In this document: positions 6,160 through 55,194 of the stretch, one piece after another | How the letters are laid out: every line of letters starts with the position of its first letter | Numbering within the stretch: position 1 is the first letter of the stretch | IMG/VR virus record: IMGVR_UViG_3300037249_001368 | Coordinates: 114,154-178,153 of that record | Length of the DNA stretch: 64,000 nucleotides | Source of the DNA: a virus | Lineage: Duplodnaviria; Caudoviricetes | Reading direction: 5' to 3' (one strand) | Notes under the pieces: model-generated | The model's input: the letters and a program-made list of their open reading frames with translations, nothing else | What the model was told of the DNA's origin: nothing | Database searches by the model: none | Program-made: the position numbers and the translations under genes

Positions 6160-6999
6160 ATGTATTCCCAAAAAGCAAAGATTTACGGTTTTAAGCAAAT
6201 GCTCAGTGCAGCCATTGCTTTCGTCACAAGTATCTCGAAAACACTTCACGAACTGATGCCTGACTTGCCGGTGTTTGTCCTCGTTTCAGGTGACAATAAT
6301 TATATCATGGACGAGAAGTTCAAAACCGTTGCCAAGGAATTATATGAAAAGACTCCTCGCTTTGTGATACGATTTAATTCCTTTGAAAGAGACCAAGCAC
6401 AGGACACAGCAGTTTACAACCGTTACGAATTTATATCTCAGGACGAAGACGCAGAAGAACAGGGTGAGTTGGCAAGAGCCTCAATCAGGAGGTTATGTAC
6501 TTACCTGAATTGTAATTGCACGATGGTTTCATCGAATTTCATCAGTGCAATGATGCACCTTGAAATGCTTTATGCTATATTTTCAAGAGAGAATCCATTC
6601 AGTTATGAGTATCAGGGTTCGGCATTTAATGGGGCTTTCACGACAGATTCTCAAGATTTTAACTTTCCTGAGCAAGATTCAGGCACGAGAAATTTTAATC
6701 AAAACATAGACGTCAAAGTTCAAGTACATTTATACACACCAAAAATCAACACTATCGTTCTCGGCAAAGATTATGATTATGATGGTGTTGCGGTGACAAT
6801 TCAGGAAAAAGATGTCATAAACCGTGTTGAAGTTTCTGAAGAGGAAACCGACTATGTGGAGAAAGACATGATTCCTGAAGAAATTGACGTCGAGGGTGAG
6901 ATACCGCAGGATGGTGGTGAAGGCAAGGTCAAAGTCGTGGAACCACGTCAGGATGATGACATTCCTTATACCAGCACAAATCGTGAAACAAATGTCTAA
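6160..6999 (+). CDS. putative tail completion/sheath stabilizer, T4 gp15-like
   Basis: TPRFVIRFNSFERD resembles the gp15 PR-hydrophobic-D motif; beta-rich C-terminal half. Confidence 0.5.
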   Translation: MYSQKAKIYGFKQMLSAAIAFVTSISKTLHELMPDLPVFVLVSGDNNYIMDEKFKTVAKELYEKTPRFVIRFNSFERDQAQDTAVYNRYEFISQDEDAEEQGELARASIRRLCTYLNCNCTMVSSNFISAMMHLEMLYAIFSRENPFSYEYQGSAFNGAFTTDSQDFNFPEQDSGTRNFNQNIDVKVQVHLYTPKINTIVLGKDYDYDGVAVTIQEKDVINRVEVSEEETDYVEKDMIPEEIDVEGEIPQDGGEGKVKVVEPRQDDDIPYTSTNRETNV

Positions 7000-8035: not shown

Positions 8036-9577
8036 ATGAACAATTTAGACAAACAGAAAACCCTTGAAAAGGGTTACGAAAATGCTCAAATGCACTTTTT
8101 CAAGACTGTGACTGAGTATCTTGGTGAAATCAAAGATAAGCACGTCCGTCTTGAGATGGCAGAGAGCCTGCATGATGACATTGAGCAGAATTGGGAAACC
8201 GCCAAAGGTACATTCCAATTCCTTGGCTGTATGGCTTACCTCGTTGGTTTGGACTTCTGCTCACAAACTTACCCCAACAGAAACGTCATCGGAAATGCTC
8301 GTAAGCGTATCGAGACATTTGTGCTTCCTGCAGACTTCCAAAAGGAGTTTCTTGAGAAATTCGTGGCAGTCATTGAAAAGACTGACATGAAGGACTTTGA
8401 AGCCATCTACGACCGTTACTCAAAGGAAGCAGAAGAAGAAATTCCTCAGAAGTATGTGGGGACGCTGAGCGGCATCGCTTACAAGACCAAACTCATCCTT
8501 GCCAATTCATCAATCGCCGTAAAATATGCGGTTGACGTGAAGAACATCATGGACAAGAACGCATGGACCTATCAGGACATCATCAAGATGAATACCACGG
8601 TCTCACAGTACTGTAAGTTCATGGGCAAGCCCGCTATCAACAAGTTCAATGCTCTGTTCATGGACAAGAACTACCAAGACTTGTTGAAGACTGCTGCCGA
8701 CAAGTTTGAGCAGTACAAGTTTGGTACTCTGTTCATGGAGTCTATCCAGACCATGAAAGACTTCTTGATTTCGGGAAGATTCAGCAAGGAAGACATCTTA
8801 CGTATGCTCAACAACGAGATTACCGAGGAAGAGTTTACCAAGGCAGAAGCAGAGTTCCAAGAGAAACTGAAAGCCGATGAACTGAAGAAGGAAGACAAGG
8901 CCCCAGTCTACGAACAGACCGTCGAAGACATGATGCACAAAGACCCCGTCAACGCGGTTTTGGTCATTGCTGACGAAGCCATTGATTTCGGCCTCAAAAC
9001 CGAGGAAGATTTCATCAAAGGTATCGAGGCAGTGTGCAACGCCCCCGAATACATGGGCAGCATTTATCACTACATCAAGGCCAAGATTTCCGCAGTGGAC
9101 AATACCTGCACTTTGGGTAAATACAACTTCACCATCGAGAAACTCATAGAGACCGTCGATAAGAAGGTTGTGGAACTCAGAGCAGATTACAAGGCCGTTG
9201 CTGAAGAGATTTGCGAGGACCTCGGTGATAACAAGAAGGAAGTCAATCAACTGGTCAACGCCATGATTGGTTGCTTGATTCTTGAATCAAACGACCAGAA
9301 GAGTTACCTCATTTCTCAATACATGCAACCTTCGATTGAAACATATCAACACCTCACTCAAATCATGAACCTGATTGAGGAGTCTGACATGATTGCCAAC
9401 GATGAAGGACTGAAGACCTACGGCAAACTTTACAAGTTCGTCAAGGAAACTCCCGCAATCGCTGACAAACTCGTTTCAATCAACAGAGCAGAGCCTCTCT
9501 TCAATAAACTGTCTATGTTTATTGCGGTGAAAGACCTGTTTAATAAATATAAGGAATCCTGTAATACACCTGAATAA
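8036..9577 (+). CDS. hypothetical alpha-helical protein, probably highly expressed
   Basis: 513-aa ORF, C-ending codon bias like the SSB gene, own terminator. Confidence 0.75.
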   Translation: MNNLDKQKTLEKGYENAQMHFFKTVTEYLGEIKDKHVRLEMAESLHDDIEQNWETAKGTFQFLGCMAYLVGLDFCSQTYPNRNVIGNARKRIETFVLPADFQKEFLEKFVAVIEKTDMKDFEAIYDRYSKEAEEEIPQKYVGTLSGIAYKTKLILANSSIAVKYAVDVKNIMDKNAWTYQDIIKMNTTVSQYCKFMGKPAINKFNALFMDKNYQDLLKTAADKFEQYKFGTLFMESIQTMKDFLISGRFSKEDILRMLNNEITEEEFTKAEAEFQEKLKADELKKEDKAPVYEQTVEDMMHKDPVNAVLVIADEAIDFGLKTEEDFIKGIEAVCNAPEYMGSIYHYIKAKISAVDNTCTLGKYNFTIEKLIETVDKKVVELRADYKAVAEEICEDLGDNKKEVNQLVNAMIGCLILESNDQKSYLISQYMQPSIETYQHLTQIMNLIEESDMIANDEGLKTYGKLYKFVKETPAIADKLVSINRAEPLFNKLSMFIAVKDLFNKYKESCNTPE

Positions 9578-34756: not shown

Positions 34757-35102
34757 GGATGTTCTGATTTTCCCTATGGAAAGAAAACTTGTCCACACGG
34801 GATTATACATGGAAATCCCCGAAGGCTACGAAGGTCAGGTTAGACCTCGCAGTGGACTCGCCCTCAAACACGGAATCACCGTACTGAACACACCTGGCAC
34901 CATTGATGCTGATTACAGAGGTGAGATTTGTGTTATTTTGTATAATTCTAACCCACCAGGTTCAGACCCCTATGAAGTGAAGAAAGGTGACAAGATTGCT
35001 CAGCTGGTTTTCGCTTCAGTCATTCAAGCAGAAATTATTCCCGTAAACGAGTTGTCATCAACCGACCGTGGCAAAGGCGGTTTCGGTCATACAGGGAAAT
35101 AA
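34671..35102 (+). CDS. dut: trimeric dUTPase
   Basis: [33 protein letters not shown]. Confidence 0.95.
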
Positions 35103-35103
35103 C

Positions 35104-35485
35104 ATGGAATTTGTACAGTACATTTTCGGAAATTTTTGGCATTTCATAATGTTTGTTGTCGTTTTGGCAGTTATATTCGATGGAATTGCTGATATTGTCC
35201 GAGCTTTCAATAAACCACCAACAAAAAATACTGACAACGATGATAATGATTAATGGTGTCATGTATCAAGAGAAGCAGAATCTTGATGAAGACTTTCCTT
35301 CCTGTTCTTTGTGCAAAGTTCCACTGAGCCAATGTCAAAGCCAGTGCAAGCAATTCGGTAACAACTACTTCTTCACAACTGCTAACCCAGAAGATGCAGG
35401 AAAAGATATTTCAGGTTGTATGAAATGTATTGGAATCTGTGGAATTATCATAGCAGTAGTTATCACCCTTCTTCTGATTTTTTAA
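35104..35485 (+). CDS. two small membrane proteins (35104-35253; about 35240-35485)
   Basis: hydrophobic helices; the second has a Cys cluster. Confidence 0.5.
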
Positions 35486-50874: not shown

Positions 50875-52671
50875 ATGACCAACGAAGAAAAATTAGAACT
50901 TTGGAAAAGAGCATCTGACGCTTATTACAATTCCGATGAGCCCATAATGGAAGACATGGAATTTGATGAGTTGACTGATGAACTTAAAGAAGCAGGTTAT
51001 AACCTTGATAAGTACATAATGATGAAGCAAGGTTTGGAAGATGTTTCCAACCAAGATTCATCTAATATCGGTTTACAGGTTTCTCTGAAAAAGATTAAAT
51101 GGAAAGACCGTTCCACCGTTGCAGAAATACTGAAGTTTTTCAGAAAGTTTCCTAGAAGTAATTTCTATGTGGCAGCCAAGTATGACGGTTGTTCTCTGAA
51201 ATTGGTTGAGGAGGATGGAACCATTATGACTCGTGGTGGTCAGGATGTTACCGAAAAAATCAAAAACAACCACACAATCCTTAAAGCGAAATCAGACATA
51301 CATACCAAAACAGGTTATATCGTTGGTGAATTATTGATGCCAAAAGCATCATTCAACGAAAAATACTCTGAAGATTTTAGTAACCCAAGAAACATTGTTG
51401 CTGGTGCGTTGAACAGAAAAGATATATCACCAGCGGTTATCAATGATTTAGAGTTTGTTGCATACACCGATGGAATGAATCCATTGCTTGATACCAATGT
51501 TTGGATTAAGATACCTGAATTATCAGTTTCGGGATTGCTTGGTTATGAATTCGATTTGACCAAGTTCATTGAATATCTGAAATCTGACCAATTCCCGTAT
51601 TTGGTTGACGGTATCGTGATTGCTACACCTGTTGAAAAGCGAGAAATTGTTGATAACTATCCTACAAACATGGTAGCAATCAAATTCCCATCAGAGGTGG
51701 TTGCAACCAAAGTTATTGACATCGAGTGGTCACAGAAAAAGACCTCAAAACTCACCCCAACGCTCATAACAGAACCTGTCACAATTCAGAGTACAACAGT
51801 ACACCGTTGTGCTGGTAACAATTACGCGTGGTTGCGAGATAGAGGTATAGGTGTAGGCTCAGTTATCAAAATCACAAAATCAGGTGACATCATTCCTCAC
51901 TGCGTTGGAGTTATTTCCAAGGGCACAATTAAAATGCCCGAAGTTGAGTATAAAATCATCGGTAAAAATCTGATAGCATCAGAAGATAACATCGAAACAA
52001 AGCAATCAAAGTTCTTTAATGCCATCAGAAGGCTTGGGATAAAAGGCATCGGTGATGTTCTGAGTAACATAATCGCCGAAGAATCCGATTACGACATATT
52101 CAAGATTTTCGACAAGAATCGTAAGATTGATTATCTGTCAAAGTTAGGACCTGATTCAGCAAACTGGAAGATATTCTCCCAAGTTTATGACATTAAAACA
52201 TTGCGTCTTTCTGATGTAATCTTTATGTGTCAGTTCAATGGTGTCGGTGATAAATTCTCAGAAAAGATATCATTGGTAATTTCTAAGAAATCTACGGATG
52301 TATCCAACTTATCTGATTATATCATAAACAATGTATGCCGAGGAGAAGGTTTCCAGAAAATCAAAAGCAGCATGCATGAGTTGATTGGTTACGGAATTTC
52401 GGTGGTTTTGGATTCTGTCACAGATGAAAATACCATCACATTTGAAATGACCGGCGAACCTCCGGGAATGACCAAGGACCAATATGTTGCTTTAATTACA
52501 AAAAGATTTCCTCAGATGAAGCATATCAGCCTAAAGAAGGATACCAATCTAGTTATTACTAATAACAAAGCGAGTAATTCGGGTAAAATGACTAAGGCGA
52601 GAAAGTACAATATCAAAATTGTTACGTACAACGAAACCTTGCTTCCGACATTTGACCCGAGCTCATTATAA
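50875..52671 (+). CDS. ligA: NAD-dependent DNA ligase
   Basis: ASDAYY...EFD, KYDG, TRG, GEL, NPRN, DGIV, AIKF, GDIIP, HhH repeats, BRCT. Confidence 0.92.
   Translation: MTNEEKLELWKRASDAYYNSDEPIMEDMEFDELTDELKEAGYNLDKYIMMKQGLEDVSNQDSSNIGLQVSLKKIKWKDRSTVAEILKFFRKFPRSNFYVAAKYDGCSLKLVEEDGTIMTRGGQDVTEKIKNNHTILKAKSDIHTKTGYIVGELLMPKASFNEKYSEDFSNPRNIVAGALNRKDISPAVINDLEFVAYTDGMNPLLDTNVWIKIPELSVSGLLGYEFDLTKFIEYLKSDQFPYLVDGIVIATPVEKREIVDNYPTNMVAIKFPSEVVATKVIDIEWSQKKTSKLTPTLITEPVTIQSTTVHRCAGNNYAWLRDRGIGVGSVIKITKSGDIIPHCVGVISKGTIKMPEVEYKIIGKNLIASEDNIETKQSKFFNAIRRLGIKGIGDVLSNIIAEESDYDIFKIFDKNRKIDYLSKLGPDSANWKIFSQVYDIKTLRLSDVIFMCQFNGVGDKFSEKISLVISKKSTDVSNLSDYIINNVCRGEGFQKIKSSMHELIGYGISVVLDSVTDENTITFEMTGEPPGMTKDQYVALITKRFPQMKHISLKKDTNLVITNNKASNSGKMTKARKYNIKIVTYNETLLPTFDPSSL
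52527..52554 (+). promoter_or_regulatory. intragenic bipartite promoter (CAGCCTAA-N16-AGTT)
   Basis: exact-spacer copy in the ligase 3' end, pointing into the tRNA/ncRNA locus. Confidence 0.65.
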
Positions 52672-52689
52672 CAACGAGCAGCAAAGCAA

Positions 52690-53335
52690 AGCTTCAATAG
52701 AGTGCGGTGATACGCCGCCGAACTTCGACGGACGCCGTCGTACTGGCTCACAAGTTCAAGTCCCAACAACTTCTTAGCGTGAGCCGTCGATGCGGGTTAG
52801 AGCAGTAGGTAGCTCGTCAGACTCATAATCTGGAGGTCGGGGGTTCGAGTCCCTCACCCGCTACACCCAGTCGAGACACTCTTCGGACAGCCGTCTTCAC
52901 CGTCAGTCAGCGGCTTTTGTAGTGTCAGGTAACTGGTTTTCGCCCAACATCGGGCATCATCTCCCATCTTGAGATTCGGTGAACTCATTTGGGAGCAACA
53001 ACCAAAGAAAATCCTCATAATCCGATTCATTCGGAAAGAGAACGCCGGGTTCATTGGACCTAAATGCGGGTTAAGGCCTGCCGTCGGAACGTTACCGAGT
53101 CCGTTATCGCCATGACAGACCGACTCAGTCGCAGGAGCGGCCGCCACAGGAGAAATTCTCTACCACCCGTTCATTGCACTCGCCCCTCCATCACAAATCT
53201 TCAGCTGGACATCAGCGAAGCATCGCAGGGGCCCGCCGCGCCAGAGTCCAAACATTTGGGCGTTTTTCTTAGACTACCCTCTTCCCATCATAGAAAGGCA
53301 GAACTCCTTTTACCTGCCAACGGCTGTTGAGTTCA
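52690..53335 (+). ncRNA. candidate large structured non-coding RNA flanking/embedding the tRNA
   Basis: GC-richer than flanks by eye, no credible ORF, at least ten stems; G-U pairs favour the plus strand. Confidence 0.55.
52791..52863 (+). tRNA. tRNA-Met(CAT), initiator type
   Basis: cloverleaf TGCGGGT/ACCCGCT, D stem GAGC/GCTC, loop CTCATAA, GTTCGAGTC; 1:72 mismatch, A11:U24; CCA not encoded. Confidence 0.92.
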
Positions 53336-53361
53336 ATCATGTCCGGATATATTTGAACAGT

Positions 53362-53390
53362 CAACCTAATCATAGTACTGAGGTGTGGTT
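53362..53390 (+). promoter_or_regulatory. possible promoter variant (CAACCTAA-N17-GGTT)
   Basis: motif match with a 17-nt spacer. Confidence 0.4.
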
Positions 53391-53479
53391 TTTAGAGTCA
53401 CACCAATGTGAAAGCTTGTTCATAATCGGTAAAAAATACGTGTTTCAAACAATGACTTGAGTTTACACACCACAGCTCT

Positions 53480-53767
53480 ATGAATAAAAAAGTACAGGAA
53501 ATCAATGGTCGGAAAATCACCGACTATGATGAAGAGTACCGAGGTATTAAGATTCTGTGTAGAATCACGGAAACCAACATATTCTCAAGCACCAAGTCTT
53601 CGACTTACATAGTTGATTATCCTGTAAAAATCACCGAAATAATTCCTAAAGGAAAAGTCATAAACTATTGTGAAGATGTTGGGTACGGATTACCGACATT
53701 CACAAATCTGAACTTAGCAAAATCTTTTATTGATAGAATCCTAAATCCCGAACACATACAGTGCTGA
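53480..53767 (+). CDS. hypothetical protein
   Basis: 95-aa ORF followed by a terminator. Confidence 0.65.
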   Translation: MNKKVQEINGRKITDYDEEYRGIKILCRITETNIFSSTKSSTYIVDYPVKITEIIPKGKVINYCEDVGYGLPTFTNLNLAKSFIDRILNPEHIQC

Positions 53768-53805
53768 GAACCCGAGTTTTCTTAGGAAGGCTTGGGTTTC
53801 TTTTT
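53767..53805 (+). terminator. intrinsic terminator
   Basis: gaacccgagttttc/gaaggcttgggttt + T tract. Confidence 0.75.
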
Positions 53806-53821
53806 GCAAAAAATATAATCA

Positions 53822-54451
53822 ATGACAAAATTTTACACTACACCTTACACTTTGAAGTATTTTGACTGCAGCAATTACGAAGGATGGCAGACTAAATCAG
53901 TATCACAAAAACTGGATATTATAAGAGAATTTGTGGAAACAACTCCTGAATACCAAAAACCATTTGATGTAATCATAAAGATACCTGTGAAAAAATTTAT
54001 GGAGCCTCAAACATTCCAAGAAATTCCTGAACTATTTCTGCAAGTATTAACTGCACCAAAAATTATCAATGAAATTTTACTCCCAATCGAGAAAGAACAC
54101 CTTATAGATTATTTAGACCCAAATGTCGCAGAAAAGTATGGAAGAGATTTTAATGAAGAGGTCGAGGTTTTTGGCGATTTTTGTGATAAGATGCCCTCAG
54201 AATATCACGTCCAATGTCATTACATACCAAAAGAATACAGAGAATATCTGAAAAATTATTGGAAAGGGGTACCGTACAAAGAAGAAATAGAATATGCTCC
54301 GTTGATAAATGACAAACGGATTCTTATAATCGACCCCTACGCAAAGGGATTGACCCAAATTTCTCAGTTTACCCAATGTATACTGGAATTTTATGACCCA
54401 AGTGAATCTATTGTTTTTACATATAATGACCATAAGGAATGGAAACCATAA
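53822..54451 (+). CDS. PRTase-like protein with degenerate PRPP-binding loop
   Basis: paralog of the next gene; INDKRILIIDPYAKGLTQ. Confidence 0.65.
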   Translation: MTKFYTTPYTLKYFDCSNYEGWQTKSVSQKLDIIREFVETTPEYQKPFDVIIKIPVKKFMEPQTFQEIPELFLQVLTAPKIINEILLPIEKEHLIDYLDPNVAEKYGRDFNEEVEVFGDFCDKMPSEYHVQCHYIPKEYREYLKNYWKGVPYKEEIEYAPLINDKRILIIDPYAKGLTQISQFTQCILEFYDPSESIVFTYNDHKEWKP

Positions 54452-55194
54452 CTATAGACATATCAAACAAAAATGTTTTGTGTGGTTCTGATACACCCAA
54501 CAATATCCAAGAATATCGTTACACATCACCAATAAACGGGCTGTATTATGACAGAATCAACGCTAAGTCTTATAGGCTCATTTCTGCTTTCAGAAGACCT
54601 TATATTGACGAAATTATGTTTTCGTGGAAATATGAAAACGGCTGGTATATGGGTCAAAAAGTAAAAGAATCAATTCTTAGAAACGCTGTATCAGAACTTG
54701 GTTCATTTGACACCATAATAGAGATTCCTTCGATTAGTACAGTGAATAAAGAAATAGCTGTCTCATTGTGTAAAATTATTCCTCACACGAACCATGTATA
54801 TGAATATTTCTTGGGAATGTATAAATCATCTGCGGTAGAAACTGTGAATGTTGCTATGCTTAAAAGTGACGGTTTGGATGTCAAGAAATTTTTCAAGGAT
54901 TTGGAGAAATGGTTCGACACTATGCCTGCAGAGTATTTTCAGTACAGACACATACCACCTAAATACAGGAAATATTTTGATAAAGAAAAAGCCGTGCCAG
55001 AGGAATCTGTTCTTGAATATGCAGAAATGATAAATAACAAACGTGTTCTTGTAATTGATGACACAATTTCTACCGGTAAATCCATCACCGATTATTGTAA
55101 GGCAGTTGTGCAATCATTTACCCCGAAAGAACTAATCATATTCACAGCATTTTTCACCACCAATAAGAAAGTTATAAAAGAAATCAAGTCATGA
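54439..55194 (+). CDS. type I phosphoribosyltransferase-family protein
   Basis: NNKRVLVIDDTISTGKSI PRPP-binding motif; IIEIPS. Confidence 0.8.
   Translation: METITIDISNKNVLCGSDTPNNIQEYRYTSPINGLYYDRINAKSYRLISAFRRPYIDEIMFSWKYENGWYMGQKVKESILRNAVSELGSFDTIIEIPSISTVNKEIAVSLCKIIPHTNHVYEYFLGMYKSSAVETVNVAMLKSDGLDVKKFFKDLEKWFDTMPAEYFQYRHIPPKYRKYFDKEKAVPEESVLEYAEMINNKRVLVIDDTISTGKSITDYCKAVVQSFTPKELIIFTAFFTTNKKVIKEIKS

Follow-up and report, generated by a model that had tools for sequence, protein, structure and literature searches.

The window analyzed here, a 64,000-nucleotide (nt) stretch, is the final 64 kb of the 178-kb IMG/VR virus record IMGVR_UViG_3300037249_001368 (Caudoviricetes; ~77% complete, ~40% guanine plus cytosine, GC), and its subject is a gene for a methionine transfer RNA (tRNA-Met) together with a GC-rich RNA of ~390 nt that follows it. 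Nearly all genes of the window lie on the plus strand. Between the gene for an NAD-dependent DNA ligase and the next open reading frame (ORF; 53480-53767, 95 amino acids, aa) are 808 nt, 52672-53479, without a credible gene. A first-pass annotation, made from the sequence of the window, had singled out a lone large gap, GC-richer than its surroundings, and both observations are borne out: no other non-coding stretch of the window is as long (the runner-up measures 396 nt, 34757-35152), and GC content is 50-60% in the gap and 0.48-0.58 over 52600-53300 vs ~0.37 in the flanks, in a phage with 39-40% GC overall. We favor, at a probability of roughly 60%, the reading that this gap encodes a stable structured non-coding RNA of an undescribed family, co-transcribed with the tRNA and ended by an intrinsic terminator (Table 1).

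Table 1. Features of the tRNA-Met locus, in coordinates of the window
Feature	Position	Strand	Evidence
NAD-dependent DNA ligase gene	50875-52671	+	ORF; homologs with PF01653 and PF03120; anchor for finding homologous loci
Leader hairpin H0, gcgg/ccgc	52704-52719	+	Manual reading: L055 keeps the stem with another loop; ggtgc/gcacc instead in B-type alleles
Leader hairpin H1, cgacgg-acg-ccgtcg	52726-52740	+	5/6 pairs changed on both sides; 87.5% of cells paired (8 distinct sequences)
Leader hairpin H2, ggctcac...gtgagcc, inner aagtt/aactt	52745-52785	+	3/7 outer pairs compensatory; 90.5% of cells paired
tRNA-Met (anticodon CAU), initiator-like	52791-52863/4	+	ARAGORN; Rfam tRNA 63.6 bits; U1.U72, A11:U24, no encoded CCA
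Spacer of 10 nt, tRNA discriminator base to RNA 5' end	52864-52873	+	Contig starts; adapter in run X20
Abundant structured RNA, ~390 nt	52874-~53263	+	Contig depth and ends, homolog folding z-scores, no Rfam match
Variable 5' domain: P1 gacact/agtgtc (52875-52926), P2 gccc/gggc (52942-52955), P3 ctccca/tgggag (52961-52995)	52875-52995	+	Minimum free energy (MFE) folds
A-rich single strand (caaagaaaatcc..ataa) and hairpin P4 tccga/tcgga (53021-53035)	52996-53035	+	Alignment A5
Core AGAGAACGCC-GRGTTCA-TTGGAC	53037-53059	+	Invariant in A, B and C alleles; can pair with both terminator halves
3' domain, ~190 nt	53060-53245	+	Covariance model R1 (A-type)
3'-domain helices Pa, Pb, Pc	Pa 53066-71/53165-70; Pb 53075-83/53138-45; Pc 53149-53161	+	R1
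3'-domain arm gagtc/gactc, loop GCCATGACA	53091-53132	+
3'-domain helices Pd, Pe	Pd 53182-87/53227-32; Pe 53199-53220	+
Intrinsic terminator gtccaaa-ca-tttgggc, then TTTTT	53246-53267	+	Terminator scan; conserved in every allele of types A, B and C
5' untranslated region (UTR) of next gene, outside the RNA	53287-53479	+	Low-depth contigs of two studies begin at 53287 and 53291

An Abundant RNA Begins Downstream of the tRNA

Six metatranscriptomic runs contain part of the stretch, and the contigs of four were compared with 52400-53800. If contig depth is taken as a rough proxy for expression, the RNA contig stands 8-70-fold above the contigs that flank it. In run X20, a contig at 52874-53249 (398 nt) has a depth of 790, with flanks at 11 and 10.5, and an adapter tail (TCCGATCT) immediately precedes 52874. 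The contig of X15 and X16, probably one data set deposited twice, covers 52874-53202 and has a depth of 85, with flanks at 5-10; it too begins at 52874, so that contigs from two studies start exactly at this position, 1 nt ahead of the first stem. In X17, a single contig runs from 52717 to 53263, through part of the leader, the tRNA and the trailer, at a depth of 234 with flanks at 0; after 53263 it reads AAG and then the Illumina adapter AGATCGGAAGAGC. The last window nucleotide in this contig, 53263, is the first T of the T-run behind the terminator hairpin (53246-53261); a hairpin, a U-tract and an RNA contig that stops there together identify an intrinsic terminator. These observations are consistent with a discrete, very abundant RNA that spans 52874 to ~53263.

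The first-pass annotation had placed a large RNA around the tRNA, from 52690 to 53335. A structured, expressed RNA does lie beside the tRNA, but only on its downstream side: leader contigs have low depth, and the accumulating RNA is found only 3' of the tRNA. The proposed co-transcription with the tRNA is consistent with the X17 contig, and the 5' end at 52874 fits the proposed release by tRNA processing, a route that would follow from what is established of tRNA maturation and from the position of this end.

On the 3' side, the next mRNA probably starts at 53287-53291, and the stretch from there to 53479 is 85-98% identical among alleles. Two pairings that had been assigned to the RNA therefore drop out, because they reach beyond the terminator and the RNA 3' end: the ggcag/ctgcc stem (53297/53314) lies in the 5' UTR of the next transcript, and so does the 53320 side of the 8-bp complement acagccgt/acggctgt (52887/53320) that had been thought to close the whole 3' domain. 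The 5' UTR has hairpins of its own, at 53296-53318, in which ggcag/ctgcc is replaced by gacgg/ccgtc or gacag/ctgtc in other alleles, and at 53322-53364 (GAGTTCA...ATATTTG).

The RNA does not look like a message: no frame is kept among alleles, matches between alleles jump frames, and the longest ORFs belong to no Pfam family.

Homologous Loci Exchange the RNA as a Cassette

Homologous loci were reached in the ENA and Logan assemblies through homologs of the ligase and of the 95-aa protein. They come in eight distinct versions, all with the tRNA, a structured leader, a long trailer and the same downstream gene, and all from bovine gut or rumen metagenomes, as is the virus record of the window itself. 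By sequence they fall into types: A1 (the window), A1b (L055) and A2 (L008); B1 (L003, with L009, L010 and L012 ~99% identical), B2 (L007) and B3 (L013); C (L015); D (L004); and the partial E (L006 and L014). The GC-rich block is present in every allele despite the 39-40% GC of the genome. At least 13 DNA runs (X2-X14) also contain relatives, in which fewer than 60% of the words sampled from the stretch occur. In GenBank phages, the match was limited to the tRNA, and the closest relatives of the ligase are <30% identical.

How do these types relate to one another? Divergence of the RNA does not track divergence of the flanks. L008 and L007 share 94% identity in the 3' part of the ligase gene, 99% in the downstream gene and 95% in the tRNA, with 59% in the leader and 58% in the RNA; L007 and L013 share 86% in the ligase part and 81% in the downstream gene, with 97% in the tRNA, 98% in the leader and 92% in the RNA. 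Leader type and RNA type are always inherited together. This uncoupling argues that co-circulating phages recombine old and distinct allele types of the leader-tRNA-RNA block. Two Logan contigs of related phages, L005 and L006, end inside or just past the tRNA; such breaks fit assembly graphs that branch at a conserved tRNA beside hypervariable flanks.

Comparison of Alleles Supports a Folded RNA

Most of the stems listed in the first-pass annotation exist and are present in the MFE fold, and comparison with the homologs shows which of them are maintained. Compensatory changes occur in the leader, in P4 and in helices of the 3' domain, a qualitative result from 7-8 sequences. The clearest case is the leader, in which the stems cgacgg/ccgtcg and ggctcac/gtgagcc (H1 and H2) are together paired in 90% of cells vs 32-52% with the partners slid (8 distinct sequences); 8 of their 18 pairs are compensatory, and none of 500 shuffles matches the observed values. 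H2, which ends 5 nt upstream of the tRNA and carries an AAGTTCA motif, is replaced at the same place in the D and E alleles by stems unrelated in sequence (gcacagc/gctgtgc and gcatggt/accatgc).

Within the RNA, every allele has a long hairpin straight after the tRNA and then one to four more, whose number and sequence vary by type; natural variants also carry a 13-nt insertion after 52980. The A-rich single-stranded block that follows (CAAAGAAAATCC..ATAA) is conserved, and does not vary among types A, B and C. The P4 stem behind it, by contrast, is TCCGA/TCGGA in A, TCCGT/ACGGA in B and ACTAC/GTAGT in C, yet 92% of cells remain paired: column pair 43:49 is A-U, U-A or C-G, and pair 40:52 is C-G or A-U. 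In each of the six MFE folds for types A, B and C, the core then pairs with the 3' end of the RNA, AGAACGCC with GGCGTTTT and TTGGAC with GTCCAA, thereby closing the 3' domain. This helix is not proven, because its columns hardly vary, and it is predicted to compete with the local terminator hairpin.

Three lines of comparison bear on the 3' domain. First, in covariance model R1 (53054-53177; 30 pairs from 3 A-type sequences), 97.8% of cells are paired vs 30-45% with the partners slid, and 3 pairs are compensatory. Second, A1-like natural variants differ at 10 sites over the same interval, of which 8 are unpaired and the remaining two, 53124 and 53161, toggle between G-C and G-U. Third, the consensus fold of the three B alleles contains 129 pairs, of which 17 vary: compensatory changes account for 5, changes to G-U for 7 and changes to A.C for 0. 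Changes to G-U with none to A.C are the asymmetry expected from selection for pairing on the plus strand; one-sided changes of this kind fit the strand that had been proposed, and we infer strongly that it is the strand of the RNA.

For individual stems, the comparison supports tccga/tcgga, gagtc/gactc and the hairpin at 53149-53161, and a manual comparison finds helices equivalent to gcccct/aggggc and its inner stem in other alleles. The ggttc/ggacc stem (53048/53056) is not maintained: it needs a G at 53048, where every other allele has an A. For the mature RNA, each of the eight homologs has a negative MFE z-score (-1.7, -2.4, -3.1, -2.9, -2.7, -4.3, -0.8 and -4.1).

The D and E alleles may hold a clue to the origin of this architecture. 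By manual reading, the internal-loop letters of the core, AAGTTCA, there face ATATTTA between unrelated stems (ATGAT/ATCAT and CATGCC/GGCGTG in D; ATGGT/ATCAT and CACA/TGTG in E), with a small inner loop and a T-run behind. This arrangement suggests, as a lead rather than a result, that an ancestral terminator module surrounds the 3' domain in types A, B and C.

A motif pair recurs in hairpins whose stems are wholly allele-specific: their 5' side carries RAGTTCA and their 3' side A(T/C)ATTT(A/G). RAGTTCA occurs in the window at 52753-52759, before the tRNA, at 53047-53053, in the terminator module, and at 53330-53336, in the 5' UTR of the next gene; sites in relatives are L004:~6175-6240 and ~6300-6335, and L014:~130-190 and ~215-360. 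A genome-wide search for GTTCA-containing hairpin modules gave a noisy background. The motif pair may be a recognition site for a protein or nuclease, or a recombination joint.

The tRNA and Neighboring Features

Is the tRNA an initiator, as had been claimed? Canonical bacterial initiators carry C1xA72, an A11:U24 pair and three G-C pairs in the anticodon stem (29-31 with 39-41). The claim stands in two respects and fails in the third. The tRNA at this locus has a 1:72 mismatch, in the form U1.U72, a pair that Rfam marks as non-canonical and that all homologs keep, and it has A11:U24 within the D stem GAGC/GCTC (52791-52863); the three G-C pairs are absent, since the anticodon stem TCAGA/TCTGG contains a single G-C pair, at 30:40, and the homologs have one or two. 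Judged by these bases, the tRNA-Met would be partly initiator in character, showing two of the three bacterial hallmarks, and is best called initiator-like. In L004, L007 and L008, anticodon-loop position 33, almost universally U, is C (CCCAUAA).

The record contains four other tRNAs, and none has a comparable trailer except tRNA-Ala, which has a transfer-messenger RNA (tmRNA) behind it. Those for Phe, Lys and Gln lie at 8369, 13153 and 103605, respectively. The tRNA-Ala(UGC) is directly followed by a permuted, two-piece tmRNA, outside the window (G000:C1:9860-10148, corresponding to L056:1861-2149); this tmRNA, at G000:C1:9942-10148, scores 67.3 bits with Rfam RF04321 (gathering score 47), and ARAGORN reads its tag as GNNYEMRAAA*.

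A replication origin or primer RNA at the gap was considered and rejected, since cumulative GC skew has no extremum at the locus. Two genes at 53822-55194, between those for the 95-aa and a 98-aa protein, are missing in the relatives L003, L004 and L013; they encode 209 aa without a family and 251 aa with a weak phosphoribosyltransferase-like C-terminus, below Pfam cut-offs. The runner-up gap of the window has no ORF of >=70 aa, a GC content of 0.44 and no Rfam match at the gathering threshold.

A Model and Its Alternatives

The reading that we favor can be put together as follows. The structured leader, the initiator-like tRNA-Met and the ~390-nt GC-rich RNA would be transcribed together, with transcription stopping at the conserved terminator. 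Host enzymes would then excise the tRNA, with RNase P cutting at its 5' end and RNase Z, or a different endonuclease, at its 3' end, and the downstream product, trimmed to the base of P1, would accumulate as a stable folded RNA. Its predicted fold comprises fast-changing 5' hairpins, the A-rich strand, P4 and a core able to pair with the terminator region and thus to close a multi-helix 3' domain. The product is probably a new phage non-coding RNA.

What might such an RNA do? It could act in trans as a protein-binding scaffold or decoy during infection, a role favored by analogy with other abundant phage RNAs and by the cassette-like diversification, and the exchange of cassettes hints at a part in phage-host or phage-phage conflict. 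A more specific version is a tentative proposal, well short of even odds: that the locus represents a new class of trans-acting phage RNAs, for example decoys or scaffolds directed against a host factor or defense that acts on tRNA or translation initiation, with a surface diversified by cassettes and possibly with assemblies like those of the large phage RNAs ROOL and GOLLD.

Several observations weigh against the reading of a stable structured RNA. Single-sequence MFE z-scores for the copy in the window are -1.8 on the plus strand and -0.9 on the minus strand, not beyond chance; because they are so weak, the listed stems alone amount to no more than a GC-rich sequence yields, and the support for them, as far as sequences can give it, is from the homologs and not from this copy. 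The covariation, in turn, comes from 7-8 distinct but related sequences and is qualitative, without significance of the R-scape type. Model R1 places Pa, Pb and Pc in the B-type L003 (B1) as they had been placed by eye, weakly (E 0.23), and in the C allele nothing beyond the hairpin that carries the GCCAUGACA loop is recovered (E 0.46); alignment across allele types fails for the 5' domain and for much of the 3' domain. A dedicated promoter had been placed at 52527, inside the 3' end of the ligase gene, but a sigma-70 scan returned 3 weak sites against 2.2 expected from shuffled sequence. Expression is seen through contigs, not reads, which makes strand, exact ends and relative levels indirect, and depth is a coarse measure of it. 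The 18-nt core motif ACGCCGRGTTCATTGGAC gave seed-only chance matches in IMG/VR, JGI metagenomes and GTDB genomes, and as far as these scans show, the family would be limited to one clade of rumen phages.

Could the RNA instead be a by-product of tRNA maturation? If the trailer and the leader hairpins formed a cis-acting element for maturation or stability of the tRNA, the 390-nt RNA would be its long-lived remnant. The co-inheritance of leader and trailer types around a conserved tRNA would be expected of such an element, RAGTTCA hairpin modules stand on both sides of the tRNA, one contig spans leader, tRNA and trailer, and GC-rich hairpins with a terminator would by themselves stabilize a fragment. 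This explanation deserves to be taken seriously but appears unlikely: 390 nt of maintained multi-helix structure far exceeds the needs of known tRNA trailers, neither the single-stranded stretch nor the core varies among alleles of types A, B and C, and the other four tRNAs of the phage do without such a trailer, tRNA-Ala and its tmRNA excepted.

It is improbable that the gap is DNA without a function, the decayed remains of a tRNA array, of a gene or of an imported GC-rich segment, passively transcribed behind a strong tRNA promoter. The very fast divergence of the alleles, with indels, the weak folding z-score of the window copy and the narrow distribution are what such DNA would display, and they count against a functional RNA; compensatory and G-U-only changes, an invariant core and single-stranded block, high GC retained in all alleles and negative folding z-scores in 8 of 8 homologs are not, and neither tRNA-like remnants (E<=10) nor a conserved ORF were found. 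Finally, the core AGAACGCC..TTGGAC has complements in both terminator halves, which allows two exclusive folds, and accumulation is typical of terminated leaders, but a riboswitch-like attenuator of the downstream genes, with the core as anti-terminator and the abundant RNA as the terminated "off" product, is very improbable given that (i) the core lies ~190 nt upstream of the terminator, unlike in known attenuators; (ii) the downstream mRNA appears to start separately, at ~53287-53291, as seen in low-depth contigs of two studies; (iii) a conserved 200-nt UTR follows the terminator, which no RNA contig bridges; and (iv) riboswitch and T-box models have no match.

If the RNA reading holds and the product is functional, rumen jumbo phages would invest in abundant non-coding RNAs, and an RNA of ~390 nt would offer a tractable system: it has a defined 5' end and a terminator, a very high apparent abundance in rumen metatranscriptomes and a link to an initiator-like tRNA, and its natural allele types could serve as ready-made mutants.

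Comparison with Known RNAs

The first-pass annotation could not match the RNA to GOLLD, ROOL, RNase P, tmRNA or SRP, and Rfam 15 agrees. Searched with its 4227 families at the gathering threshold and at E<=10, the window and six homologous loci contain only the tRNA; chance-level matches (E 2-7) do occur, none within 52865-53270. Rfam 15 includes RNase P RNA, SRP RNA, 6S RNA, T-box elements, riboswitches, group I and II introns and self-cleaving ribozymes. The ROOL model (RF03087, gathering threshold 99.1 bits) finds nothing at E<=10, whether in the entire phage record, in the window or in the six homologous loci, and the GOLLD model (RF02032, gathering threshold 150 bits) likewise finds nothing at E<=10. 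A T-box-like reading, in which the loop GCCAUGACA would present an AUG "specifier" to the tRNA, was rejected because the motif is missing from the B-type alleles; degenerate tRNAs in the trailer were sought as well, with none found at E<=10 in the window and six homologous loci.

In its apparent biogenesis, the RNA recalls phage T4. The T4 tRNA cluster gives rise to two stable RNAs of ~120-140 nt, "species 1" and "species 2", which have no known function; they are co-transcribed with the tRNAs, freed by host tRNA-processing nucleases and accumulate stably. Going by this description, the likeness would lie in release from a tRNA precursor, with the T4 RNAs being shorter; release of this type is compatible with a 5' end 10 nt past the tRNA and with a contig that extends from the leader through the tRNA into the trailer. 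A layout of tRNA followed by structured RNA is, moreover, one that the phage already uses, in its tRNA-Ala and tmRNA. A tmRNA at the tRNA-Met locus itself was rejected: ARAGORN and the Rfam tmRNA models were negative, and no tRNA-like domain or tag frame was seen.

A published catalog lists ~10,000 candidate structured RNAs from IMG/VR (PMC10690425); its comparative method is unlikely to have caught this RNA, because only one copy seems to be present there. The closest parallels in setting are ROOL and GOLLD. ROOL was first found in cow rumen metagenomes, often lies beside tRNAs, occurs in phages and prophages and has an unknown function (PMC5737381); the RNA described here shares its rumen habitat, tRNA-adjacent phage context, high GC content and structured nature, but ROOL averages 581 nt, and the present RNA, at ~390 nt, has a simpler architecture with fewer junctions in the predicted folds. 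GOLLD, a large RNA of ornate structure, is frequently encoded close to tRNAs and within prophages, and may be co-transcribed with those tRNAs (PMC5737381); here the likeness is one of context, near a tRNA in a phage, and the present RNA is much smaller. Both GOLLD and ROOL form RNA-only complexes by cryo-electron microscopy (bioRxiv 10.1101/2024.12.08.627333). Because both models fail and the RNA is much shorter, it belongs to neither family; few big bacterial RNAs still lack a known function, GOLLD and ROOL among them, and to these the tRNA-Met locus adds a smaller, unrelated example.

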